From a virus: a DNA stretch of 43,033 nucleotides. Shown here in pieces: positions 20,960-43,033 of this stretch. Position numbers and translations under genes: made by a program. Where the stretch lies: the IMG/VR virus record IMGVR_UViG_3300025291_000005, positions 1-43,033 of that record; one strand, 5' to 3'. Position 1 is the stretch's first letter. Each line of letters starts with the position of its first letter. Under the pieces are notes generated by a model. The model was not told where the DNA came from and searched no databases. It saw only the letters and a program-made list of their open reading frames with translations.

Positions 20960-21229
20960 TTAGTAACCGCCGTCTTTTGGGAAACTAGGTCTTTTCTTTT
21001 TAGGGACTTCTTGTTTGATTGGTGATTCTTTCATAACAATAGGCTCCTCTGTTATATTCGGCATATGAATACCAGCACTACCACCATTACTCGCAATATA
21101 ATAACGTATTGCATGTCGTACAGTTTCTGACTTTCTACTTCTTGGAATCTTTTTTAACCACTCATGAATATCTTTATCCAGCTGATCGTCATAACTTAGC
21201 TGATAAATTTTATTCGCCATCTTCTTCAC
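20960..21229 (-). CDS. ParR-like RHH centromere-binding adaptor
   Basis: 89 aa overlapping the 3' end of the ParM-like gene by 20 nt. It has an RSRKSETVRHAIRYYI RHH-like segment. Confidence 0.55.
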   Translation of the reverse strand: MKKMANKIYQLSYDDQLDKDIHEWLKKIPRSRKSETVRHAIRYYIASNGGSAGIHMPNITEEPIVMKESPIKQEVPKKKRPSFPKDGGY

Positions 21230-22220
21230 TCACTTTAAACATTCCATATTTGAAAAATCCTTCTGCGTTTGCTTGTTGTGGTTTCTCTGCTACCTTCACA
21301 CCACCAACTAAATCTTCAATAGCGCTTGCAAATAATTCTGCTCCGCCACCAGTAATGATAATTTCATCGAAACGGTCAAACGTTTTCCATGCGTTTTTAA
21401 TACCTTGTTTAATCTTTTCAGATACTTGGAATACAGCTTTCGGTTTAATTTCTTCAAAATCAATAATGTGACGTTCTGAAAGTTTATATTGCCCTGATTC
21501 AAAGAATGGTTCAACGTGGTAGTATTCCACTTTTGCATTAGAATTTTGAGAGTTGATGTAATCTGCTATTTCTTGATAAACATCTTTCATTCCAGCTTCA
21601 ACTGATTTAAACTCATTTTCACGACGTAGCCCAGTGATCGAGTCTAAATCTGTTGTTCCTGTTCCGATGTCAATTACTCCTACACGAATATCTTCGTAAC
21701 GCTCATCAGCTACAAATCCATCTGTATCTAAGTATTGGCCCATTACAGTTCCGATTGGTTGAGGTAAAATGATAACTTCCTCTACATTAACCTTTACTGT
21801 TTTCCCATCAACTTTTACTGTATGTAATCCCTCAAATACTGCTTTTAAATCATTTGCTGCTTCTGTTCCGATTTCATTACTAGGTACGCCTGTGATTACA
21901 ATTACTTCATCTGTCGGTTGTACTTTGCTTTTAAGAGCAAGATCAGCAAGAGCGATGCTTGTTAATACTTTGTATAAAGGTTCTTTGTATCTGTTTTGGA
22001 ATCCATAAGTTGCAAATACATCTTTTACTTTTGTGATGTCTTTCCCCCAAACATATTCGATACCTTCAATTTCATAAGTCTTTAATTTCGTCTTTTTACC
22101 TGTAATTGATTCTCCTACATCCTTTTTAAAAGCCACTAATGAAGGTAATACTCCAGATGCAACTTCACTTCTACCTTTAATGTTTCCGTTACCGTGGTCA
22201 ATTACTAATACTTTTTTCAT
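21210..22220 (-). CDS. parM: Actin-like plasmid segregation ATPase (ParM/StbA/Alp family)
   Basis: 336 aa from MKKVLVIDHGNGNIKG (phosphate 1). It also has DIGTGTTD (phosphate 2) and IIITGGGAELF (adenosine motif). The track start at 22286 is an unsupported extension. Confidence 0.85.
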   Translation of the reverse strand: MKKVLVIDHGNGNIKGRSEVASGVLPSLVAFKKDVGESITGKKTKLKTYEIEGIEYVWGKDITKVKDVFATYGFQNRYKEPLYKVLTSIALADLALKSKVQPTDEVIVITGVPSNEIGTEAANDLKAVFEGLHTVKVDGKTVKVNVEEVIILPQPIGTVMGQYLDTDGFVADERYEDIRVGVIDIGTGTTDLDSITGLRRENEFKSVEAGMKDVYQEIADYINSQNSNAKVEYYHVEPFFESGQYKLSERHIIDFEEIKPKAVFQVSEKIKQGIKNAWKTFDRFDEIIITGGGAELFASAIEDLVGGVKVAEKPQQANAEGFFKYGMFKVSEEDGE

Positions 22221-22274
22221 CAAATACACAACCTTTCTAGATTCATTGTATAAAACTTTATTATTTATAAATTG

Positions 22275-22302
22275 ATTATACAACAAGCGAACTGTTTTTC
22301 AA
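22275..22302 (-). promoter_or_regulatory. Sigma-A-type promoter for the parM operon (TTGAAA-16-TATAAT)
   Basis: The minus strand reads ttgaaaaacagttcgcttgttgtataat, about 50 nt upstream of the parM ATG. Confidence 0.55.
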
Positions 22303-22546: not shown

Positions 22547-23449
22547 TCATGATGCCAACCAATCATAGAAAGGTACTTTGCCTGTATATTTGTGTTCGGA
22601 TAAAGATTGTGCTATTAAACTACGATCAATTTTGTCTTCATGTAATTGCTTTTTCGCATTTTCTTTTATTCTACGAAGTTCCAAGTCTTCAATCTTATTC
22701 GCTAAAGCCGAAATTAAGTAATCCCTAAAGTTAGTAACCTTACCTTGGTTGTATTTATCCATTACTTTTCGTAAAACAGATTTAAAGCTTCGATCTGTTA
22801 ATTCATCTTTTGTAGCTTCACGAAGAGAGTTGATTATTAAATTTAATTCTTCCTCTGGTAGGGAAGGTGAAGAGAAGCTTCGCTTATCATCATCAATTTT
22901 CGCTATATCATTTATATATATATTGGTATTTTCTTTCTTGGTATTTTTTCTTTGGTTATTTATAATGTACTGACTTTCCGGATTCGGGATTTCCACATTC
23001 GGATTTTCAGTAAATGGTTTTTCGGAGCTCTCCGAACTTTCGGAAACCGTATCCTGGATTTCAGGAAGTGGTTCTCCGAACTCCACACGAAGTTGATATC
23101 CAAGTGAATATTGCTCTTGAATCGTTTCTTCTAATATTTCAGCCACATCTTCCTTTACTTGTCCGTAAATATAGATTTGTTCTTTATGCTTGCCCTTGTC
23201 CAAAACTTTCACACGAGCAACGTATCTATTATGTATTAACTCTGTAAGTGCATTGTAGTGTGCGTCACGTCCGTTTTTAGAACGGTTGATGATGTCAGGC
23301 ATAGTAATCTTCCAAGAACCTTCTCGGTGTGAACAGAATTGAATTAAAAGGTATTTCGCCATTCCTGTCAGTTTGCAATCGTCAAGTAAAGCGTTCTCTA
23401 CTACACTGTGTCCTCGTTTCCGAGCATGTTTGAAAATATCATTAGTCAT
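22547..23449 (-). CDS. Plasmid-type replication initiator (RepA_N-like winged-helix N-terminus)
   Basis: 300 aa. The N-terminus VVENALLDDCKLTGMAKYLLIQFCSH...NALTELIHNRYVARVKV follows the RepA_N pattern. The centre is low-complexity. Confidence 0.5.
   Translation of the reverse strand: MTNDIFKHARKRGHSVVENALLDDCKLTGMAKYLLIQFCSHREGSWKITMPDIINRSKNGRDAHYNALTELIHNRYVARVKVLDKGKHKEQIYIYGQVKEDVAEILEETIQEQYSLGYQLRVEFGEPLPEIQDTVSESSESSEKPFTENPNVEIPNPESQYIINNQRKNTKKENTNIYINDIAKIDDDKRSFSSPSLPEEELNLIINSLREATKDELTDRSFKSVLRKVMDKYNQGKVTNFRDYLISALANKIEDLELRRIKENAKKQLHEDKIDRSLIAQSLSEHKYTGKVPFYDWLAS
22976..23080. repeat. Cluster of TTCGGA/TCCGAA/TCCGGA hexamers inside the rep gene (iteron-like)
   Basis: At least 7 copies lie within 105 bp, including the near-palindrome ttcggagctctccgaactttcggaa. 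Confidence 0.4.
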
Positions 23450-23746: not shown

Positions 23747-23771
23747 AGAAGACACTCGAAATGAGTGTCTT
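23747..23771 (-). terminator. Terminator of the membrane-protein gene
   Basis: Perfect stem aagacactc/gagtgtctt overlapping the stop codon. The sequence downstream on the minus strand is T-rich. Confidence 0.65.
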
Positions 23772-24858
23772 ATTTTAATCCAAATTGCGCCTTATTTGTA
23801 AGCTTCCCACCTTGGAACATAAAGTTAGCATTTGCTCCTGATGTGCCTTGACCTTTCCACATATACATGACTGTGTAAAACTCTGTTCCTTTATCTCCAC
23901 TTTCAGATAAAACTTCCCCATCGCTACCAATGATTTCTTTTACTTGATCATATGTCATACCGTTTTCAATTCTGTCAAACTCATCTTTAGATATTGTTGG
24001 TTTCCCAGCGCTAGATCGTTTTTTGTTTTCTTCATCAGCTTTTTGTTTTTCTTCTTGAGCTTTTTTAACATTCGCAGCAACAATTTCATGTTCCTTTTCT
24101 ATGTAGTCAGGAACAGACATATTGTACTTCTGAGCCATTTTTTCAAAATGTTCCAATACATCCTTATCCTTTGAATCTTTAAGGTCAGTTGGTTCATAAG
24201 ACTGATATTTCACATTGTATTTGTTGTAAATCTCCATGTTTACATTACGACCATCATCCATTTTTAAAGCTGTTTCCTTTGGCTTTTCTTCTTTCTTAGG
24301 AGCTTTTTCAACTGATTTATTATCGTTTTGAGAAGTTTTTACATTAGTAGAAGCGGCTTTCTCTTCTTTCTTATCAAAAATCGCGCTAATTGTAGCAACA
24401 GCGATAAATAAATACACAGCGATTGCTACAACCATTTTCCATTTAGTATTAGATCGGAACCCAAGTATTTTATTGCGGAACTTTCTTTGAATTAGGTGTG
24501 TTTCAAGATTTGTGTTGTTTTTAATAAAACTCTCAATCTTTTTGCCGTCTTCTTTTGCTGTAAGTTCAAATGTTTTATTTATACCTTTGAATCTGAATAT
24601 AGATTTTATAGCAAAGTGATCAATTGTCACATTGTCATAGTCTGAAATTTGATGTGTAACTAAGCTAACAACATCATCAATACTTTTATCATAATCAAAA
24701 AGTTGAATGTGGTCTTTTGTGATAGTAGCATATCCTGATTTACTCTCTTCAAATCCAGCTCTGATGATGATAGGTGTATAATTTTGATATCTTCTAGCTA
24801 TCGCTTGTTTAGCAAGTTTATCATCACTAGGCTTTTTCTCGTTTTTATCTTCTGCCAT
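23770..24858 (-). CDS. Single-pass membrane protein: cytoplasmic PH-like domain, Lys/Glu-rich linker and extracellular DUF3862/BLIP-like domain
   Basis: 362 aa from MAEDKNEK after the RBS ggaggga. The TM segment is WKMVVAIAVYLFIAVATISAIF. The C-terminus is GMTYDQVKEIIGSDGEVLSESG...ANFMFQGGKLTNKAQFGL. Confidence 0.7.
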   Translation of the reverse strand: MAEDKNEKKPSDDKLAKQAIARRYQNYTPIIIRAGFEESKSGYATITKDHIQLFDYDKSIDDVVSLVTHQISDYDNVTIDHFAIKSIFRFKGINKTFELTAKEDGKKIESFIKNNTNLETHLIQRKFRNKILGFRSNTKWKMVVAIAVYLFIAVATISAIFDKKEEKAASTNVKTSQNDNKSVEKAPKKEEKPKETALKMDDGRNVNMEIYNKYNVKYQSYEPTDLKDSKDKDVLEHFEKMAQKYNMSVPDYIEKEHEIVAANVKKAQEEKQKADEENKKRSSAGKPTISKDEFDRIENGMTYDQVKEIIGSDGEVLSESGDKGTEFYTVMYMWKGQGTSGANANFMFQGGKLTNKAQFGLK

Positions 24859-25046
24859 TTTTAATTGTTCCCTCCAAAATGTAAGATTCTTAAACAAGCA
24901 TAACAAATTTAGTTACAACTATTTTGTCATATTGTGTCGAATAAATTAAAAAAAGAGAGCCTAAGCTCTCACTGTCAAATTTGGTAATATTATGTAAAAT
25001 TTTACCACTGGATATTGGAAAAGATTTCTTCTAAAATGAAATCAAA

Positions 25047-25391
25047 TCACAACAGATCATCGCATTCACTCAAAAATCTCACGTAATGATCGAGTTGTTT
25101 GCAAAAATTCTTTCTTTGGCTTTCAGATAACGCCGCATACGTTTTTTGAACACCGAAGATAGTATTATGTAGCATTTCATCATCAACAGCGTCATTTCGT
25201 CCAGTAAGCACGTCTAATGATACGCTGAAATATGAGGAGAGGCGAAATAAAGTTGCAAGGTCAGGTTCAGAAAAACCATTTTCATAATTGTTAATCTGGC
25301 TTCTGCTGAGATTTAGATCATGAGCTAAATCCGCTTGTCTTAATGAACGACTTTTTCTGAGTTTTTTTAAAGTTTCACCTAAAGTTTTCAT
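25047..25391 (-). CDS. XRE-family HTH regulator (114 aa)
   Basis: Starts MKTLGETLKKLRKSRSLRQADLAHDLNLSRSQINNYENG. The track start at 25448 is an unsupported extension. Confidence 0.75.
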   Translation of the reverse strand: MKTLGETLKKLRKSRSLRQADLAHDLNLSRSQINNYENGFSEPDLATLFRLSSYFSVSLDVLTGRNDAVDDEMLHNTIFGVQKTYAALSESQRKNFCKQLDHYVRFLSECDDLL

Positions 25392-25419
25392 ACTATTAGT
25401 ATAGTTATAGGGATATCGA

Positions 25420-25458
25420 TATACTATAAATGATAGATTTATTGTCATTTATAGTATA
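25420..25458. promoter_or_regulatory. Perfect 14-bp inverted repeat (tatactataaatga N11 tcatttatagtata); candidate operator
   Basis: Lies 29-67 nt upstream of the XRE gene start. A related TAGTATAG half-site occurs at 25397-25404. Confidence 0.5.
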
Positions 25459-25898
25459 GTGATTGATTATTAACCCTGATGAAAATAAAAATAAGAACTT
25501 ATGTTCTCTTTTTATCGAATTGGTGGTAAAATATTCATGTGAGGTCTTTCAATACGAAAATGCATGATTGCATATTTTAATCCGTGAAACATGAGAAACG
25601 TTGATATATATCGTTTCTCAAACTTTCTCAATATTTATCTGATAACTCTATGACCGAATATTGGGAAATTTGTGTTATTATGAAAGTAACTAAAAAACGG
25701 ACGCAAAGAAAAAGACCCACGGTGTAAGTAGTGTTGGTCGCACTCTTACACTGCCCCCTAATCAGCCTAGGGAACATTGTCGCGGATCTTGTACATACAT
25801 ATTATAACACAACTCAGAGTGAGAGTGACACGTTTTCCTTTATATGTAAAATTTTGGGGTGACGTGTCTTTTTTTGTCCAACAAGGAGGACAAATGTT

Positions 25899-27029
25899 GT
25901 GCAAAAATTATTGAACAGTCTCAAAGGGGATTTATGTTTAGCAGGAATCACGAATAGTAAGTTAGCGTTATCTTGGGGAATATCTCCAAGCGGTGTATCT
26001 GATGTATTCAAAGGTAAAAGACAAATGCGGTTTTCGTATCTTTCTACATCATTAGCTTTGTTGAAAAAAGGGATTAAAACAGAAAGCGAATTCATTTCGA
26101 AATACGCTGAAGTTGCAAAACCTAAAAACAGAAGAGAAATTATGGAATATCTATCTTTACGTGGAGATTTTAACTCACTGAAGAAGATTGTAGAACAAGA
26201 AAAAGAATCAAAAACAGGTACAAATAAAGAATGGGCTAATGTCTATGATCTGATTTACAAAAGATATACTCAGAAAGTGGAGCTTCTTGAGTTCTATAAC
26301 TTGATGCGAGAGAAAAATAAGAAGACAAACACTTTAGAAATGAAAGTCTTGATTGATTTATTATTATGTCAACTCTTATATCAGACTGGAAATCATGAAT
26401 TAATATCAAACAAAATGGATGAAATCCAGTCAAATATTAAACTTATATCTAATAAATTTATCGAAAAAACATTTGATTTACGTTTAAAAGAAGCTGAAGC
26501 TGTTCTTCACTTAAGAAGAGGTAACATAGAAGAAGCTCGTAACAAATGCAATGAGATGCTAAGTGCATGTCAACTTAATCCTTACTATTTGTTACCTCAA
26601 GCGATTGCTTATTTTAAATTAGGTGAGTCTTATATATTTGAAGACTACGAGAAGTCTAAGAAGTATTTGCTCAAAGCTTATGAATCATTAGATGGTTTGG
26701 ATTTTGTAGGTATTAAAGAAAAAAGAGAAATGTACCAATACACTCTTTCTTTTTTGAAAATATATCACGCAAAAGAAATGGATACTTTGACAGAAATTCA
26801 TAAAGCTGAGTTAGCATTTTTAAAAATTAGACAAGGGTTTAAAAAAGAAGCTAAAAAACTATTAATGGAATTAAAAGACGAAAACGGGAAGTTGAGCGCT
26901 ATACAAACAGTATATTTAGCAATGGCATGTGATAGTGAATCTTTAATGAAAGAAGCTCTTGAAAGCCTATTGCAAAAAGGTGACATATTTTACTCTCAAT
27001 TGGCTAAAAGATACTTGGGCTATTCTTGA
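25899..27029 (+). CDS. aimR: AimR-like arbitrium receptor (RRNPP family, HTH plus TPR-like body)
   Basis: 376 aa with a GTG start 8 nt after aaggagga. It has an N-terminal HTH-like segment and an all-helical body. Its size and segment order recall phi3T/SPbeta AimR. A signal-peptide ORF follows. Confidence 0.7.
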   Translation: MQKLLNSLKGDLCLAGITNSKLALSWGISPSGVSDVFKGKRQMRFSYLSTSLALLKKGIKTESEFISKYAEVAKPKNRREIMEYLSLRGDFNSLKKIVEQEKESKTGTNKEWANVYDLIYKRYTQKVELLEFYNLMREKNKKTNTLEMKVLIDLLLCQLLYQTGNHELISNKMDEIQSNIKLISNKFIEKTFDLRLKEAEAVLHLRRGNIEEARNKCNEMLSACQLNPYYLLPQAIAYFKLGESYIFEDYEKSKKYLLKAYESLDGLDFVGIKEKREMYQYTLSFLKIYHAKEMDTLTEIHKAELAFLKIRQGFKKEAKKLLMELKDENGKLSAIQTVYLAMACDSESLMKEALESLLQKGDIFYSQLAKRYLGYS

Positions 27030-27034
27030 AAAAA

Positions 27035-27043
27035 TGGTATAAT
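27035..27043 (+). promoter_or_regulatory. Extended -10 promoter element TGGTATAAT upstream of the peptide gene
   Basis: Perfect TGnTATAAT, 6 nt after the aimR stop. Confidence 0.45.
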
Positions 27044-27068
27044 TATCTTTAGAGAAGAGGTGAAATGA

Positions 27069-27209
27069 TTGAAGAAATTTTTAGCACTTTTACCTATTTT
27101 GTTAATGGCAGGAATGTTCACGTTCACCGCTGATAATCAAGAAGAATCTAATCAAGATGCACCAAAACCAGTAGTTCAACGAATGATGGTTGATCCAGGC
27201 GGCTGGTAA
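27069..27209 (+). CDS. aimP: AimP-like secreted pro-peptide (46 aa: MKKFLALLPILLMAGMFTFTADNQEESNQDAPKPVVQRMMVDPGGW)
   Basis: Not in the ORF track. It has a TTG start after the RBS agaggtga, an N-terminal signal peptide and a polar pro-region. It lies immediately downstream of the receptor gene. Confidence 0.65.
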   Translation: MKKFLALLPILLMAGMFTFTADNQEESNQDAPKPVVQRMMVDPGGW

Positions 27210-27216
27210 GATTTAA

Positions 27217-27225
27217 TGATATAAT
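27217..27225 (+). promoter_or_regulatory. Extended -10 element TGATATAAT downstream of aimP (a second TATAAT lies at 27232-27237)
   Basis: Perfect TGnTATAAT, 8 nt after the aimP stop. Confidence 0.4.
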
Positions 27226-27244
27226 AAAATATATAATAGATTTG

Positions 27245-27274
27245 AATGCGATCATCCTTACGGGTGGTCGCATT
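27245..27274 (+). other. 13-bp RNA hairpin (aatgcgatcatcc/gggtggtcgcatt) that pairs fully only on the + strand
   Basis: Two positions are G-U pairs on the + strand and would be A-C mismatches on the - strand. Confidence 0.5.
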
Positions 27275-27290
27275 CGTAGTTTCTGGGGAT

Positions 27291-27324
27291 ATTCTGTTTT
27301 TTTGAGAATCTTTAAAAACAGAAT
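27291..27324. promoter_or_regulatory. Perfect 11-bp inverted repeat attctgttttt N12 aaaaacagaat; candidate AimR operator or leader hairpin
   Basis: Lies between aimP and the AimX-position ORF. A third AGAAT half-site occurs at 27305-27309. Confidence 0.4.
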
Positions 27325-27363
27325 TTATGGTAATAAATTACAATATTTCTGGAGGGGTTTGGG

Positions 27364-27501
27364 ATGACTAAAGAGCAATTAGAAAAAGAATTAATAGAAA
27401 TTGAAAACAACTTACAAGGAATCTTTAATACAGCACATAACGGCAATGCAGAATCATATGAGATGTTATTAAAAATAAAAGAGGCGATCGGTAGCATTTA
27501 A
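27364..27501 (+). CDS. Small ORF at the AimX position (45 aa: MTKEQLEKELIEIENNLQGIFNTAHNGNAESYEMLLKIKEAIGSI)
   Basis: Not in the ORF track. It has the strong RBS ggagggg and is convergent with the CI-like gene. Confidence 0.45.
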   Translation: MTKEQLEKELIEIENNLQGIFNTAHNGNAESYEMLLKIKEAIGSI

Positions 27502-27516
27502 CGCTATCAATCGCCT
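27482..27516. terminator. Hairpin shared by the convergent AimX-position ORF and the CI-like gene
   Basis: Arms aggcgatcggtagc and gctatcaatcgcct (14 bp, one mismatch and one wobble). A T-run follows only in the minus direction. Confidence 0.5.
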
Positions 27517-27857
27517 GATATTTTTACTAGTCTTTTTATCATCTCGATAAGTTCTTTTTGTTTTTCTGGATTCTTAGATCGTATATCCTTCATCACTTGT
27601 TCCAAGTCGTCCTTAGCTGTTATATCAGGATTCCTTTCATCAGATTCACCTAAAATATAAGCTACAGACACATTGGCCAATTTAGCAATTTCCAAAGTTA
27701 GTCTTTTAGAAGGGCATTTTTCACTTTCTTCATTTTCCCACATTGAAACGGCTGATCTACTTTGCATTCCTAACGCTTCAGCAAATTCCCTTTGACTCAT
27801 TTTTAATATATCTGTCCTTATTTCTTTTACTCGTCTACTAATTAGTTTGTAATCCAT
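27507..27857 (-). CDS. CI-like XRE-family repressor (116 aa)
   Basis: Starts MDYKLISRRVKEIRTDILKMSQREFAEALGMQSRSAVSMWENE and is divergent from the cro-like gene. The track start at 27998 is an unsupported extension. Confidence 0.8.
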   Translation of the reverse strand: MDYKLISRRVKEIRTDILKMSQREFAEALGMQSRSAVSMWENEESEKCPSKRLTLEIAKLANVSVAYILGESDERNPDITAKDDLEQVMKDIRSKNPEKQKELIEMIKRLVKISGD

Positions 27858-27943: not shown

Positions 27944-28033
27944 TTCTCAAAATGACAACACTTTTTCTTAAAATGACAGCACTTATAAAATTTTTCATAT
28001 TTTTTAAATTTAGGGGTTCTCAAAATGAGACCT
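27944..28033. promoter_or_regulatory. Three related operator repeats in the CI/Cro intergenic region, plus a rightward promoter
   Basis: The repeats are ttctcaaaatgacaaca (27944), ttcttaaaatgacagca (27965) and ttctcaaaatgagacct (28017). The third overlaps the -35 of ttctca-18-tatact (28041-28046). Confidence 0.55.
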
Positions 28034-28079
28034 CTTATGTTATACTCAAAACAACGAAACAAACAAAGGGTGAAACCAA

Positions 28080-28277
28080 ATGAAATTGAACACTGACAAG
28101 ATAAAAAACCTGAGGTATTCAAAAGGATTTACTCAATCCGAAGTAGCTCAGGCGTTAGGTTATACAAATAGAAATTCTTATTCGCAAGTCGAAACAGGGA
28201 AGCGCGAACCTAACTTACATAGAATATCCCTGTTAGCAAATTTATATGATGTGAAGATCGATGAATTGATTAATTAA
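28080..28277 (+). CDS. Cro-like XRE HTH protein
   Basis: 65 aa carrying FTQSEVAQALGYTNRNSYSQVETGKREP. Confidence 0.8.
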   Translation: MKLNTDKIKNLRYSKGFTQSEVAQALGYTNRNSYSQVETGKREPNLHRISLLANLYDVKIDELIN

Positions 28278-28297: not shown

Positions 28298-28312
28298 GTC
28301 TCAAAAAGAGAC
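28298..28312. promoter_or_regulatory. Fourth operator-like palindrome gtctcaaaaagagac
   Basis: It has the same TCTCAAAA-GAGA core as 28019-28031 and lies between cro and the antirepressor gene. Confidence 0.4.
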
Positions 28313-28346: not shown

Positions 28347-29126
28347 ATGAATCAATTACAAAAATTCTCACACAACATGTTCGGCAACTTAGAAATTCTT
28401 ATTAAAGAGGGGAAGGAATACTTCCCGGCAACAGATGTTGCAAAGTCGCTTGGGTATTCAGATCCACGTAAAGCAGTTAAGCAACATACGAAAGAAGACG
28501 GGTGGGTGATTTGCCCAGTGGTCCTTGAAGGGAAAAATCAAACGGTTGATAAGAAATTCATCAACGAACCCAATCTATACCGCTTAATCGTTAAATCAAA
28601 ACTTCCACAAGCAGAACAATTTGAAAAATGGGTGTTTGAAGAAGTACTTCCTTCTATTAGAAAACACGGAGCATACATGACAGATCAAGCTCTCGAACAA
28701 GCGGTAACTAACCCAGACTTCATGATTGGACTTCTTACCAACTTAAAAGAAGAACAAGCAAAACGCCTTGAAGCTGAACGCAAAATCTTACAGCAACAAC
28801 CTTTAGTAACATTCGCTGAAGCAGTTAAGGTATCAGTAAACACAATCTTAGTAAAAGACCTAGCAACATTATTAAAACAAAAAGGAATTGATACAGGTCA
28901 AAATAGATTGTTCGAATGGTTAAGAGAAAACGGGTACCTATGCAGTAAAGAAGGAAACATGTACAATACGCCAACTCAACGATCAATGAATATGGGTTTA
29001 TTTGAAAAACAACCTTATGTAAGAACAAACAGTAATGGTGAATTCGAAACGAAGTTCACAACAAAAGTTACGGGTAAAGGTCAGCTTTACTTCATTAACA
29101 AGTTTCTTGGAAAGGAAGCGATTTAA
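28347..29126 (+). CDS. Antirepressor (Bro-N plus KilA-C/ANT domains)
   Basis: 259 aa. The N-terminus FGNLEILIKEGKEYFPATDVAKSLGYSDPRKAV is Bro-N-like. The C-terminal TFAEAVKVSVNTILVKDLATLLKQKGIDTGQNRLFEWLR is KilA-C-like. Confidence 0.85.
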   Translation: MNQLQKFSHNMFGNLEILIKEGKEYFPATDVAKSLGYSDPRKAVKQHTKEDGWVICPVVLEGKNQTVDKKFINEPNLYRLIVKSKLPQAEQFEKWVFEEVLPSIRKHGAYMTDQALEQAVTNPDFMIGLLTNLKEEQAKRLEAERKILQQQPLVTFAEAVKVSVNTILVKDLATLLKQKGIDTGQNRLFEWLRENGYLCSKEGNMYNTPTQRSMNMGLFEKQPYVRTNSNGEFETKFTTKVTGKGQLYFINKFLGKEAI

Positions 29127-31465: not shown

Positions 31466-32224
31466 TTGAGCAATTTATTAATACATGAACCACCATTGAT
31501 GGTTTTGCCTTCTTTAGCGAAGGAAATTGGGTTAAATGAAGCAATAGTGTTGCAACAGATACATTATTGGCAACAAATGTCTCGTCACTTTCATGATGGG
31601 AAACGTTGGATCTACAATAGCTTTCCTAAATGGAACGAGCAATTCCCGTTCTGGAGCGAACGTACATTAAAACGGATATTTAAAAGCCTTGAAGATAGAA
31701 AGTTATTGTTTGTGGGTAATTATAACAAGTTAGCAATAGACCGGACCAAGTGGTATTCCATAAATTATGAAGTATTGAATGGCATTGGTGGACAAAATGG
31801 CACGACCATAGTGTCAAATTGGCACGATGAGAATGCCAACATGACCCGACCATTACCAGAGATTACTACAGAGAATAACAACAATAATATATATGCTGCT
31901 AAAGCAGACACGAAAAAGAAGTCTACAAAGCGTTCTTATAGTGATGATTTTGAAGAGATATGGAGTATCTATCCCAAGAAAAGAAACAAGCCTAAAGCGT
32001 ATCAACGCTATAAAGAATCTTTAGATAAAAATCACAGTCATGATGTTATTAAATACGGAATTACATGTTACGCAAAAGATTGTGAGAAACAAAATACAGA
32101 ATTACAGTACATCAAGATGCTAGAAGGCTTCCTAAATGACGAAAGGTATCTTGAGTACAAAAAAGTAGATTCAAAGCAAAAACCAAAACAAACAGCTATT
32201 TCTATTGATAATTTACTTGATTGA
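31466..32224 (+). CDS. Replisome organizer / DnaD-like replication protein
   Basis: 252 aa with a winged-helix-like N-terminus. It lies directly upstream of the DnaB-type helicase. Confidence 0.65.
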   Translation: MSNLLIHEPPLMVLPSLAKEIGLNEAIVLQQIHYWQQMSRHFHDGKRWIYNSFPKWNEQFPFWSERTLKRIFKSLEDRKLLFVGNYNKLAIDRTKWYSINYEVLNGIGGQNGTTIVSNWHDENANMTRPLPEITTENNNNNIYAAKADTKKKSTKRSYSDDFEEIWSIYPKKRNKPKAYQRYKESLDKNHSHDVIKYGITCYAKDCEKQNTELQYIKMLEGFLNDERYLEYKKVDSKQKPKQTAISIDNLLD

Positions 32225-32234
32225 GGTGTAACGG

Positions 32235-33542
32235 ATGGATAAGTACCAGGTTCATTACGAAAACGAATGCTACAGTCTTGGCATGATGATGCGAGATAAC
32301 AGTTTAATAGATGAAACGAGATTAAAACCGAAACATTACATTAATCTTCATAACAGAAACTTATTTAAAGTGATGAAGGAATTACGTAATGAGGACAAGC
32401 CGGCAGATATGAACTCACTTGCACAAGTGGGAGAAAACAGAATGGCAACGTTTGGCGGTGTAAATACATTAAGTAACGTGTACGGATTAGGAGTGCTTAG
32501 TCATAACTTTAAATTCACACAAGATAAGATGATTGAATTTGTGGCGATTGAGGAAGCATTGAACGAGGTTGAAAACTTCAAAGAGAAATCGAAGTTCGTT
32601 CACAACTCTAAACAACTGAATGAGCTGATTTCCAAGATTAATAATGTACAAGTTGCCACTATAAAGCCTCAGCCGTCTTTTAGGGAGAAGTTACAAATGA
32701 GGGTGAAACAACATAGCGAAATGCCGGAACAAGGCTTGAGTGGAACGCCAACAGGGTTTACGAGTCTTAACAAAGCATTGGACGGATGGCAGCCTTCAGA
32801 CTTAATTATTGTTGCAGCACGTCCGAGTGTCGGAAAGACAGCTTTCGTACTAGAAACAATGCGACGTGGTGCAAAAGCGAGTCCAGATTATATGGGAACA
32901 TTCTTCTCTTGTGAAATGGATGAAGACAAGATTATTGATAGATGGATTGCAACAGAAGGAAAGATTCCGGTTGCTACGATGAATAATCCAAATAAATTCT
33001 TTGCTGGAAGACAGGAGTATTGGGAGAAGTACCACAAGGCATGTGGAGAATTAACAGAACTTCCTATAGATGTTCGTTCTGAAAAAGATATTAACGAGAT
33101 CCGTGCAGTGATTCGCAAGATTGTAAAAGAGAACCCAGGAAAGAAACACCTCTTTGCAATCGATCACTTAGGACATGTGAATATCGATGAGTCATTTGAT
33201 AGTAACCATCTCAAGTTTACATACATCATGAAACAACTGAAAGATATGCAGAAGGAATTTAAGGTACCTATTATCCTCATAGCGCAGCTTAATCGTGGGG
33301 TAGAGGGTAAGCAAGATAAAGCGCCAACAATGTCCGACATTAGGGAATCAGGGAGTATAGAAGAGATTGCAGACGTGATTATCTTCCCACACCGTCCAGC
33401 TTACTTTGACAGAGAACAAAGGGAAGTGCAAGACATTCACGATGTGGAGCTAATCATTGCAAAGAACCGTAACGGGTTCGTCGGAACATTGCCGTTCCAG
33501 TTCGTTAAGAAAACGAATTTATTTATCGATAAAGGAGTGTGA
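32235..33542 (+). CDS. Replicative DNA helicase (DnaB family)
   Basis: 435 aa with Walker A ARPSVGKTAF, the AIDHLG and IILIAQLNRGVE motifs and a DIRESGSIEEIAD motif. Confidence 0.9.
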   Translation: MDKYQVHYENECYSLGMMMRDNSLIDETRLKPKHYINLHNRNLFKVMKELRNEDKPADMNSLAQVGENRMATFGGVNTLSNVYGLGVLSHNFKFTQDKMIEFVAIEEALNEVENFKEKSKFVHNSKQLNELISKINNVQVATIKPQPSFREKLQMRVKQHSEMPEQGLSGTPTGFTSLNKALDGWQPSDLIIVAARPSVGKTAFVLETMRRGAKASPDYMGTFFSCEMDEDKIIDRWIATEGKIPVATMNNPNKFFAGRQEYWEKYHKACGELTELPIDVRSEKDINEIRAVIRKIVKENPGKKHLFAIDHLGHVNIDESFDSNHLKFTYIMKQLKDMQKEFKVPIILIAQLNRGVEGKQDKAPTMSDIRESGSIEEIADVIIFPHRPAYFDREQREVQDIHDVELIIAKNRNGFVGTLPFQFVKKTNLFIDKGV

Positions 33543-42906: not shown

Positions 42907-43033
42907 AATGGATGATAAGGGGTGAGGGGAATGTGGGGTCCAGTAACTGGAAGAGACGTACTAGAGTTCTTTTGTGAGTATAAGTGGTATGTACTGAAGA
43001 TTTCATGTATTCCCTTCTTAATCGGATTAGGAA
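42907..43033. repeat. Second copy of the terminal repeat (equals nt 1-127)
   Basis: Direct comparison by eye. Confidence 0.9.

Follow-up and report, generated by a model that had tools for sequence, protein, structure and literature searches.

The locus described here raises the question of whether a viral genome without a recognisable integrase uses peptide communication of the arbitrium type to choose between lysis and lysogeny, and whether the setting of such a cassette is out of the ordinary. It lies in the IMG/VR virus record IMGVR_UViG_3300025291_000005, which was analysed over its whole length of 43,033 nucleotides (the window). Our results indicate that the locus is very probably a complete extended arbitrium lysis-lysogeny module, composed of aimR-aimP-aimX, a convergent aimC, and a divergent aimL, carried by a Bacillus pseudomycoides phage-plasmid of siphovirus type, circular and 42.9 kb in size. 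The identification of an arbitrium cassette on an episomal phage is backed in every test run, and the order of receptor, pro-peptide, and open reading frame (ORF) in the aimX position, which an initial annotation made from the sequence had proposed, was recovered through the family and fold of AimR, the aimP gene, and the family of AimX. Gene identities, family memberships, receptor fold, conserved synteny and operators, and modular co-inheritance are direct observations of this analysis. The coordinates of the features are collected in Table 1.

The architecture and mechanism of arbitrium have already been described, and the locus is one more allele in its usual context. In the preprint by Kabel, Eldar and colleagues (Eldar and Marina groups; 10.1101/2025.11.23.689978), the extended order aimR-aimP-aimX / aimC / aimL accounts for about 75% of approximately 9300 systems. 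Among these roughly 9300 AimR loci, an adjacent aimP is present in 99%, and about 80% have downstream, on the opposite strand, a short aimC with a single helix-turn-helix (HTH) domain, 80-140 aa long and without an autocleavage domain; a divergent small HTH gene, aimL, occurs in 94% of the aimC-bearing loci, and an ORF of 29-80 aa after aimP (aimX) in essentially all of them. According to the same preprint, AimX, a small antirepressor, binds to AimC and blocks its oligomerisation and operator binding, so that the aimL early operon is released; AimC repression and AimX antirepression were verified for Waukesha92, Wbeta, and BMBtp14, and AimX overexpression in a lysogen of a Waukesha92-like phage-plasmid led to a 100-fold rise in phage titre. 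The initial annotation had considered the CI/Cro-like pair next to the cassette an unusual context. This view has to be abandoned: such a pair is a defining part of extended arbitrium and, because the extended systems have that architecture and relatives of the window keep it, the pair belongs to the system itself and is no odd neighbour.

The receptor carries much of the identification. Its gene starts with GTG, with GGAGG 9 nt upstream as ribosome-binding site (RBS). The protein matches the NCBIfam equivalog NF038310 ("AimR family lysis-lysogeny pheromone receptor") over residues 8-373 with 389.5 bits (cutoff 70) and Pfam PF22871 with 149.9 bits (E = 1.2e-43, cutoff 26.7). PF22871 was found in all 55 database homologues, of which the named ones are all from Bacillus and nearly all from the B. 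cereus group. A phmmer search of PDB sequences returned AimR chains only, namely phi3T 5zvw/5zvv (E about 1e-8) and the AimR of phage ATCC13952. The AlphaFold2 (AF2) model, for which 36 homologues were used, has a mean predicted local distance difference test (pLDDT) score of 93.1 and is all-helical, with HTH helices near the N-terminus at residues 19-26 and 30-37, in agreement with the helical, HTH-bearing ORF that had been recognised from the sequence. In a Foldseek search against the PDB with this model, the top 16 hits were AimR structures (SPbeta, phi3T, Katmira33, ATCC13952), with template modelling (TM) scores of 0.57-0.79 and E-values of 4e-8 to 1e-10. The resemblance to phi3T AimR stated in the initial annotation is real though distant: phmmer aligns residues 61-325 with E = 1.2e-8, and the structural alignment shows approximately 20-22% identity. 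RefSeq carries the identical protein as AimR (WP_098841597.1, from a 43,047-nt contig of Bacillus pseudomycoides). The nearest relatives are 81-88% identical and are encoded in plasmids of the B. cereus group and in a B. cytotoxicus chromosomal prophage that carries an integrase; homologues were detected by tblastn in 409 PLSDB plasmids, almost all from Bacillus, and PGAP calls AimR on hundreds of Bacillus plasmids.

Directly downstream, 39 nt after the aimR stop codon, begins aimP, with GAGGTG 6 nt upstream of its start. The encoded sequence, MKKFLALLPILLMAGMFTFTADNQEESNQDAPKPVVQRMMVDPGGW, has an MKK N-terminus, a hydrophobic core at residues 4-20 with a mean Kyte-Doolittle value of 2.1, and a tail that is polar (mean -1.3), and matches phrog_2682 with E = 1.4e-17. 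The start position and the RBS are shared by 9 related loci, the start codon being TTG in five loci and ATG in five, and this conservation supports translation of the gene. The exact 46-aa sequence has no copy in a collection of 15 billion proteins, and thus no pipeline has called it. The earlier description of a 46-aa ORF with a signal peptide and a polar pro-region that was missing from the ORF track was therefore accurate, both in the hydrophobicity profile and in the absence of the protein from the collection, which illustrates that such pro-peptides are still overlooked by annotation. A side observation concerns naming: AimP pro-peptides are called "complement C1q protein" by RefSeq/PGAP and by some depositors (NZ_CP033790.1; NZ_CP036024.1; NZ_CP119631.1, L135:5880-6038; Athena gp6, L007:3996-4163), which looks like a spurious name.

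AimP homologues occupy the same position in each related locus, and a C-terminus of the form (D/E)PG(2-4)W is kept in 10 loci. The pro-peptide ends with ..QRMMVDPGGW in the window, ..PKMMVDPGGW in the B. cytotoxicus prophage, ..QRMNVDPGGW in BfR-BA-01380, ..QRMMTDPGGGW in Athena, ..QHMMVDPGGGW in PHBA67-J, ..VLYSEDPGGW in pBC07-2, and ..VAMMSEPGGGGW in Waukesha92. The decapeptide MMSEPGGGGW of the Waukesha92-like group is an active synthetic peptide at 1 µM (Stokar-Avihail et al. 2019, as cited by the review PMC11945551), and alignment with this decapeptide, as the review gives it, places the processing site such that the mature signal of the window is predicted to be MMVDPGGW. The pro-peptide of RBClin15, which ends with ..QRMMVDPGGGGW, has been placed in Stokar-Avihail clade 9 (PMC11526630); the Cell 2026 paper on cross-talk holds nothing on peptides of the B. 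cereus group.

The third gene, aimX, starts with ATG and has GGAGG 8 nt upstream, so that the strong RBS previously noted for a 45-aa ORF after the pro-peptide gene is indeed there. The window protein matches the 45-position profile of phrog_7267 with E = 4.6e-17, and Waukesha92 AimX (residues 16-60 of an annotated 60-aa ORF) matches it with E = 3.9e-28; compared directly by BLASTP, the two proteins give E = 8e-8. The homologue in pBCA2 is identical at 35 of 45 residues, with 14 synonymous and 10 nonsynonymous codon changes, and is paired there with a 77%-identical AimC but with a wholly different AimR and AimP. The membership of phrog_7267, the pattern of codon changes, and the pairing in pBCA2 show that aimX is a real protein gene that travels with aimC; AimX is co-inherited with AimC and not with AimR.

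Between aimP and aimX lie two inverted repeats. A hairpin follows aimP directly in every compared locus, with arms that have changed and yet remain complementary. The second repeat, which written in full reads ATTCTGTTTTT-N12-AAAAACAGAAT, has no exact copy of its arms elsewhere in the window. Its boxes and their 22-bp spacing are identical in all six compared loci in which AimR is at least 81% identical, whatever the type of AimX and AimC, and the spacer varies; loci with an AimR of approximately 60% identity have a degenerate palindrome with a 23-bp spacer, and other AimR clades have unrelated palindromes after aimP. The solved AimR operators, which also lie downstream of aimP, are ATCACT-N25-AGTGAT in SPbeta and ATGTTC-N25-GAACAT in phi3T, and spacers of 23-28 bp are tolerated (PMC6458997). 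Since the window palindrome tracks the AimR clade and resembles these solved sites, we take it as the candidate operator of AimR.

Beyond aimX, the repressor and the Cro-like protein complete the module. The true start of aimC is M48 of a 163-aa ORF, and the exact 116-aa protein is annotated in RefSeq. AimC contains only a Pfam HTH_3 domain, without an S24 domain, and is 76% identical to Waukesha92 AimC; AimL is 80% identical to its Waukesha92 counterpart, and downstream of aimL follow genes for Ant, ERF, a DnaD-like protein, and DnaB. The adjacency of a CI/Cro switch that had been described next to the cassette is thus correct as far as a repressor/Cro-like HTH pair adjoins it; the repressor is not a classical CI, being 116 aa long, with an HTH only and without an S24 autocleavage domain. 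Three dyads between aimC and aimL overlap the divergent promoter-like sites of both genes (27958-27929 on the minus strand and 28017-28046 on the plus strand), and the same TCTCA-N3-TGAGA motif is found in Waukesha92 and in a further compared locus, L012, both with a related AimC. A fourth operator-like dyad, identical to the aimL-proximal site of Waukesha92, lies before the ant gene, which suggests that the second antirepressor is gated separately by AimC or AimL.

Table 1. Features of the extended arbitrium locus and of the element that carries it (positions in the window).
Feature	Position	Strand	Basis or remark
aimR, arbitrium receptor (N-terminal HTH + TPR-like helical domain), 376 aa	25899..27029	+	NF038310, PF22871, AF2 model, Foldseek, RefSeq name
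aimP, 46-aa secreted pro-peptide, TTG start, unannotated in source record	27069..27209	+	position, conserved homologues, phrog_2682
Codons of predicted mature peptide MMVDPGGW	27183..27206	+	alignment with Waukesha92 AimP
GC-rich hairpin 3' of aimP (aimP terminator region), 15-bp stem	27243..27276	+	part of minimum free energy (MFE) fold, z = -4.8; U-tail weak
Candidate AimR operator ATTCTG-N22-CAGAAT, 11-nt perfect arms	27291..27324	.	perfect inverted repeat
aimX, 45-aa predicted antirepressor of AimC	27364..27501	+	phrog_7267; function from 10.1101/2025.11.23.689978
aimC, 116-aa single-HTH repressor, convergent with aimX (5-nt gap)	27507..27857	-	HTH_3
Three dyad operators, TCTCA-N3-TGAGA type	27945-27957, 27966-27978, 28018-28030	.	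repeat family and pattern search
aimL, 65-aa Cro-like HTH, first gene of early lytic operon	28080..28277	+	Pfam HTH_3 E = 2.7e-13
Fourth operator-like dyad TCTCAAAAAGAGA, between aimL and ant gene	28299..28311	.	one mismatch to dyad
Bro-N/KilAC (Ant-type) antirepressor gene	28347..29126	+	Pfam ANT E = 3e-30, Bro-N E = 2e-22, phrog_130 E = 7e-90
Divergent XRE-type HTH regulator, 114 aa from M20	25047..25391	-	Pfam HTH_3 E = 5.7e-15; RstR-like 61.6 bits, below cutoff
Perfect LexA (Cheo) box GAACTTATGTTC (25495-25506) and adjoining extended -10 TGgTAAAAT (25524-25532), facing aimR	25495..25533	+
Conserved structured leader, about 170 nt	25709..25875	+	P2 25720-25753, P3 25756-25772, terminator-like hairpin 25827-25868, U7 25869-25875
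Partition module	20960..22286	-	ParM 21210-22286; ParR-like 20960-21229
Exact 127-nt direct repeat at both contig ends	1..127 and 42907-43033	.	assembly signature of circle

The working of the switch, that is, peptide processing, DNA binding by AimR, contact between AimX and AimC, and the phenotype, is modelled here on characterised homologues. Upon infection, AimR and the AimP pro-peptide would be made, and AimP would be secreted, cut to a short C-terminal peptide (predicted to be MMVDPGGW), and re-imported. Peptide-free AimR would sit on the ATTCTG-N22-CAGAAT site just past the aimP hairpin and turn on aimX, and the 45-aa AimX would bind the 116-aa AimC and keep it off the dyads between aimC and aimL. 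The early operon that starts with aimL (Ant, ERF, the DnaD-like protein, DnaB, and others) would then fire, leading to lytic growth. As the peptide builds up, AimR would release the DNA, aimX would fall silent, and AimC would repress the aimL promoter, after which the genome would persist as a plasmid prophage partitioned by ParM and ParR.

Relatives show how conserved and how modular this arrangement is. The loci compared include those of pBC07-2, pBwiPL1-2, pBc53, HD-771 p03, Athena, Waukesha92, PHBA67-J, IEBH, pBCA2, p.BC006.2, and the B. cytotoxicus chromosomal prophage, and the full extended gene set is kept in 10 of the 13 compared loci. In CP128128.1, with IS6 elements on its flanks, only aimR and aimC are left, and the aimR of pBCA2 is broken into two ORFs. 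AimR and its candidate operator are nearest to pBC07-2-type loci and the B. cytotoxicus prophage, the body of AimP is nearest to Athena, and AimX, AimC, AimL, and their operators are nearest to Waukesha92. The locus is therefore a mosaic of a receptor/signal/operator unit and an AimX/AimC/AimL unit, with the junction between the operator and aimX, and illustrates module shuffling. The peptide MMVDPGGW is also encoded in the chromosomal prophage of B. cytotoxicus, which makes it a candidate for signal sharing across elements and species. The initial annotation had proposed that the signal gates the establishment of a plasmid-form prophage. This did not hold: an AimR of 84% identity and the same predicted peptide occur in that integrase-bearing chromosomal prophage, and hence nothing in the cassette is specific to plasmid-form lysogeny.

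Among known systems, the Waukesha92-like extended system is alike in its five genes and their order and orientation, in a short 116-aa AimC without an autocleavage domain, in a 45-aa AimX of the same PHROG family, in AimC and AimL (76% and 80% identical), in the operator dyad motif, in the Ant and replication genes located downstream of aimL, as well as in being a plasmid prophage with ParM. It differs in its AimR, to which that of the window is only 33% identical and which belongs to another subclade, in AimX (approximately 25-39% identity), in the peptide (MMSEPGGGGW versus the MMVDPGGW type), and in the sequence of the AimR palindrome. With the SPbeta/phi3T arbitrium (Erez et al. 2017; 5zvw, 6hp3, 6jg8), the window shares the receptor fold (TM up to 0.79), the position of aimP directly after aimR, and, after aimP and before aimX, a candidate operator made of an inverted repeat around a long AT-rich spacer. 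The receptors are only about 20% identical, however, the window peptide does not belong to the xxxRGA hexapeptides, the candidate operator has a spacer of 22 bp instead of 25 bp, AimX is unlike the MazE-like AimX of phi3T or the RNA of SPbeta, and the partners are AimC and AimL instead of sroA-F and host MazEF. The locus falls outside the SPbeta-like group (clade 2), since the peptide ends in DPGGW and aimC and aimL lie downstream; no search aimed at sro homologues was made.

Arbitrium on plasmid prophages of the B. cereus group has been published since 2019, for B83 and relatives (PMC6669507) and for RBClin15 (PMC11526630), and a "Waukesha92-like phage-plasmid" with arbitrium is also in the literature (10.1101/2025.11.23.689978). 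Like the window, vB_BtS_B83/BMBtp14, RBClin15, and IEBH are circular extrachromosomal siphovirus prophages with partition genes, and XRE-type repressor genes flank AimR and AimP in B83, RBClin15, and IEBH. The pro-peptide tail of RBClin15 is nearly that of the window, which has two glycines where RBClin15 has four; AimR of B83 is only 24% identical, and B83 has Xer recombinases, whereas the window has none. The divergent repressor/Cro-like pair with multiple operators over both promoters resembles lambda CI/Cro, and a small helical antirepressor that is predicted to keep the repressor from oligomerising resembles SinI acting on SinR, an analogy drawn by the preprint itself (10.1101/2025.11.23.689978). 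The window differs in that its repressor lacks a RecA-cleavable domain and that induction would proceed via a peptide-controlled antirepressor.

Several other explanations were weighed. The receptor could be a host-type quorum regulator of the RRNPP superfamily (Rap, NprR, or PlcR family) that the phage carries as cargo and that has no part in deciding between lysis and lysogeny, as the tetratricopeptide repeat (TPR)-like helical fold is common to the whole superfamily and the receptor gives weak sub-threshold matches to TPR families in Pfam. The probability of this is close to nil: no match to the Rap, NprR, or PlcR families was obtained, the protein is a full-length match to the AimR equivalog, PlcR, Rap, NprR, and ComR rank behind AimR in Foldseek (TM at most 0.48 and E at least 1e-3, versus TM up to 0.79 and E = 1e-10), and aimR is embedded among phage repressor genes in conserved synteny. 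Clustering with Rap, NprR, or PlcR had been named by the initial annotation as an outcome that would speak against arbitrium; AimR was the best family in sequence and fold searches alike, and the NF038310 match together with the Foldseek ranking effectively refutes a host-type identity. A decaying or silent remnant, for example with an AimR and AimP mismatched after recombination and with the switch left to AimC/AimL and the SOS response alone, would fit the differing closest relatives of AimR, the AimP body, and AimX/AimC/AimL, and the broken aimR in relatives such as pBCA2. We consider this very improbable, given that all five ORFs are intact with good RBSs and that the candidate operator is perfect; moreover, AimR-AimP pairs with MMVDPGGW or a near-identical peptide recur in other species at 84-88% AimR identity, and because of this recurrence the pair is taken to be cognate and under selection.

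Two further explanations leave the arbitrium identity in place and concern the region after aimP. The aimX transcript might act mainly as RNA; read-through across the 5-nt gap would then silence aimC, through antisense transcription or through pairing, and the 45-aa ORF would be incidental. This was the original hypothesis for such loci, and the stop codons of the convergent aimX and aimC (27501 and 27507) are not separated by any terminator-like site, yet it is improbable in view of the conserved 45-aa family and codon changes described above, the strong and well-spaced RBS, the relief of AimC repression and the 100-fold higher phage titre observed when Waukesha92 AimX protein was supplied in trans, and the results with phi106, where antirepression was tested with a recoded aimX allele among others and where a start-to-stop mutant no longer responded to the signal or to mitomycin C. 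The palindrome at 27291-27324, for its part, might not be an AimR operator: it forms a stem in the MFE structure, as a second terminator or processing site would, and the minus strand of its spacer matches the AimC operator motif at 12 of 14 positions, as a site for another factor such as AimC might. We judge this unlikely. In the six loci with an AimR of at least 81% identity, the arms are invariant and the loop is variable, and this invariance without any compensatory change argues for a site bound by protein and not for an RNA stem; the AimC-like match falls in the spacer, which is not conserved, and pBC07-2, whose AimC differs, does not have this match, Waukesha92 has a different palindrome despite its related AimC, and the geometry (6-bp boxes, a 22-bp AT-rich spacer, a position downstream of aimP) fits the solved AimR operators. 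As a fourth AimC operator the palindrome was rejected, since the motif match is confined to the non-conserved spacer and the palindrome follows the AimR clade and not the AimC type. None of these explanations, whether antisense-only aimX, RNA palindrome, host RRNPP regulator, or decayed cassette, is favoured.

Some points nevertheless weigh against a standard extended arbitrium switch as set out above. The switch of this phage is predicted here from sequence and structure model. The 8-aa length of the mature peptide depends on alignment to a peptide known via the citation in the review, and peptide specificity is uncertain, the most similar AimR in PLSDB (81% identity) being accompanied by a different pro-peptide body. 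The poor U-tail of the hairpin after aimP leaves both AimR activation and read-through possible, and the convergent, terminator-free junction of aimX and aimC makes an antisense contribution possible. Finally, a perfect LexA box upstream of aimR suggests that expression of aimR-aimP may be SOS-gated, and the timing assumed by the standard model would therefore change.

This LexA box belongs to a conserved upstream region. The gap of approximately 500 nt between the divergent XRE-type gene and aimR shows blockwise conservation, even where AimR is only 30-60% identical between loci. Relative to the leader block, a perfect GAAC-N4-GTTC box stands 195-216 nt upstream in 63 of the 99 distinct upstream regions compared from related loci, as opposed to 0.1% of shuffles, and in 49 of these regions an extended -10 follows within 40 nt after the LexA box; in the zone between aimP and aimX, none of 77 loci has a LexA box. 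The leader, recognised as a three-block pattern, is present in at least 119 IMG/VR contigs. Among the compared loci, mostly IMG/VR contigs, 121 of 132 occurrences stand directly before an ORF detected by the AimR hidden Markov model (HMM), seven are cut by the end of the locus, and four are without AimR. Pattern matches in L046, L103, and L114 were due to chance and were removed.

In 42 non-redundant sequences, five pairs of P2 show compensatory double changes and the leader structure is 93.6% paired, compared with at most 60% when the partners are slid; the measure of pairs changed on both sides did not exceed shuffles, 80 of 500 of which attained the same value, and the sequences are inter-related. 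We regard the covariation evidence as moderate. The stem at 25827-25868, seen in the MFE fold, resembles an intrinsic terminator, as U7 comes after it and the aimR RBS next, and since the changes in this terminator stem (P4) are G-U compatible, the leader is assigned to the plus strand. An invariant AAAGAC/GUCUUU pairing could compete with the terminator-like stem, and a promoter match of 10/12 (25825-25852) falls within the terminator hairpin. Rfam gave no credible family, either for the whole window at the gathering threshold or for 25380-25920 at E up to 10, and the arbitrium literature searched makes no mention of a unit of LexA box and leader. A 25-aa ORF on the plus strand (25650-25727; MTEYWEICVIMKVTKKRTQRKRPTV) was considered as a leader peptide and is probably not coding, a 4-nt indel shifting the frame among homologues. 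It extends into the leader structure on its 5' side, has a 25-aa counterpart in IEBH, and may yet serve as a leader peptide.

As a tentative proposal, which we hold to be a serious possibility and not the probable case, the LexA box overlapping an extended -10 promoter and the leader of approximately 340 nt, whose last 170 nt form covarying hairpins and a terminator abutting the aimR RBS, may constitute an undescribed cis-regulatory RNA or SOS-induced small RNA that places the receptor and signal genes of extended arbitrium in the B. cereus group under DNA-damage and/or attenuation control. The leader would act either as an attenuator on aimR-aimP or as a small RNA of its own that the SOS response induces. 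In phi106 a LexA site is located upstream of aimX, and for the many extended systems without it the DNA-damage input is unknown (10.1101/2025.11.23.689978); if our proposal is true, the unit would be the missing SOS input of these systems. The arbitrium locus itself adds little, being one more allele with an AimR 81-88% identical to annotated proteins and a predicted MMVDPGGW signal; if confirmed, the promoter and leader would matter more, and the entry of DNA damage into extended arbitrium would become directly testable. Separately, a gene similar to the XRE-type regulator is found in most related loci and would constitute a sixth conserved component, outside the published five-gene module.

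That the element is an episomal phage is well supported. Since its first and last 127 nt are identical, the contig represents a closed circle of 42,906 bp. It carries a complete virion module (small and large terminase, SPP1-type portal, MuF, scaffold, capsid, tape measure, and GH25 endolysin) and genes for ERF, a DnaD-like initiator, DnaB, dUTPase, and a Dcm methylase. Among the window ORFs of at least 180 aa, no Pfam match to an integrase (Phage_integrase) or Resolvase was found, in accordance with the claim that no integrase is present. Virion module, partition genes, circular replicon, and lack of an integrase match are together what is expected of a phage-plasmid. Of the ParM/Rep plasmid module that had been proposed, ParM is clear (342.5 bits and E = 2.7e-102 with NCBIfam, under the curated cutoff of 417; Pfam ALP_N and ParM matches) and the ParR-like protein is weakly supported (NCBIfam E = 1.9e-6), while the Rep label was not confirmed: the 300-aa product of 22547-23449 (minus strand) is without a recognisable Rep domain, has no Pfam or NCBIfam match and weak PHROG "DNA binding" matches, and is unlike the "replication protein" of p.BC006.2 at the same position.

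Related plasmids annotate a "replication protein" where this ORF sits, and the DnaD-like and DnaB genes at 31466-33542 are candidates for replication of the plasmid form. A 42,905-bp IMG/VR contig with an identical leader element probably represents the same phage. A 378-aa ORF located between the partition genes and the lysogeny module (23770-24906, minus strand), with a transmembrane-like segment, a C-terminal DUF3862/BLIP-like domain, and a match to phrog_37750 (E = 1e-185), is probably a lysogen-expressed moron.

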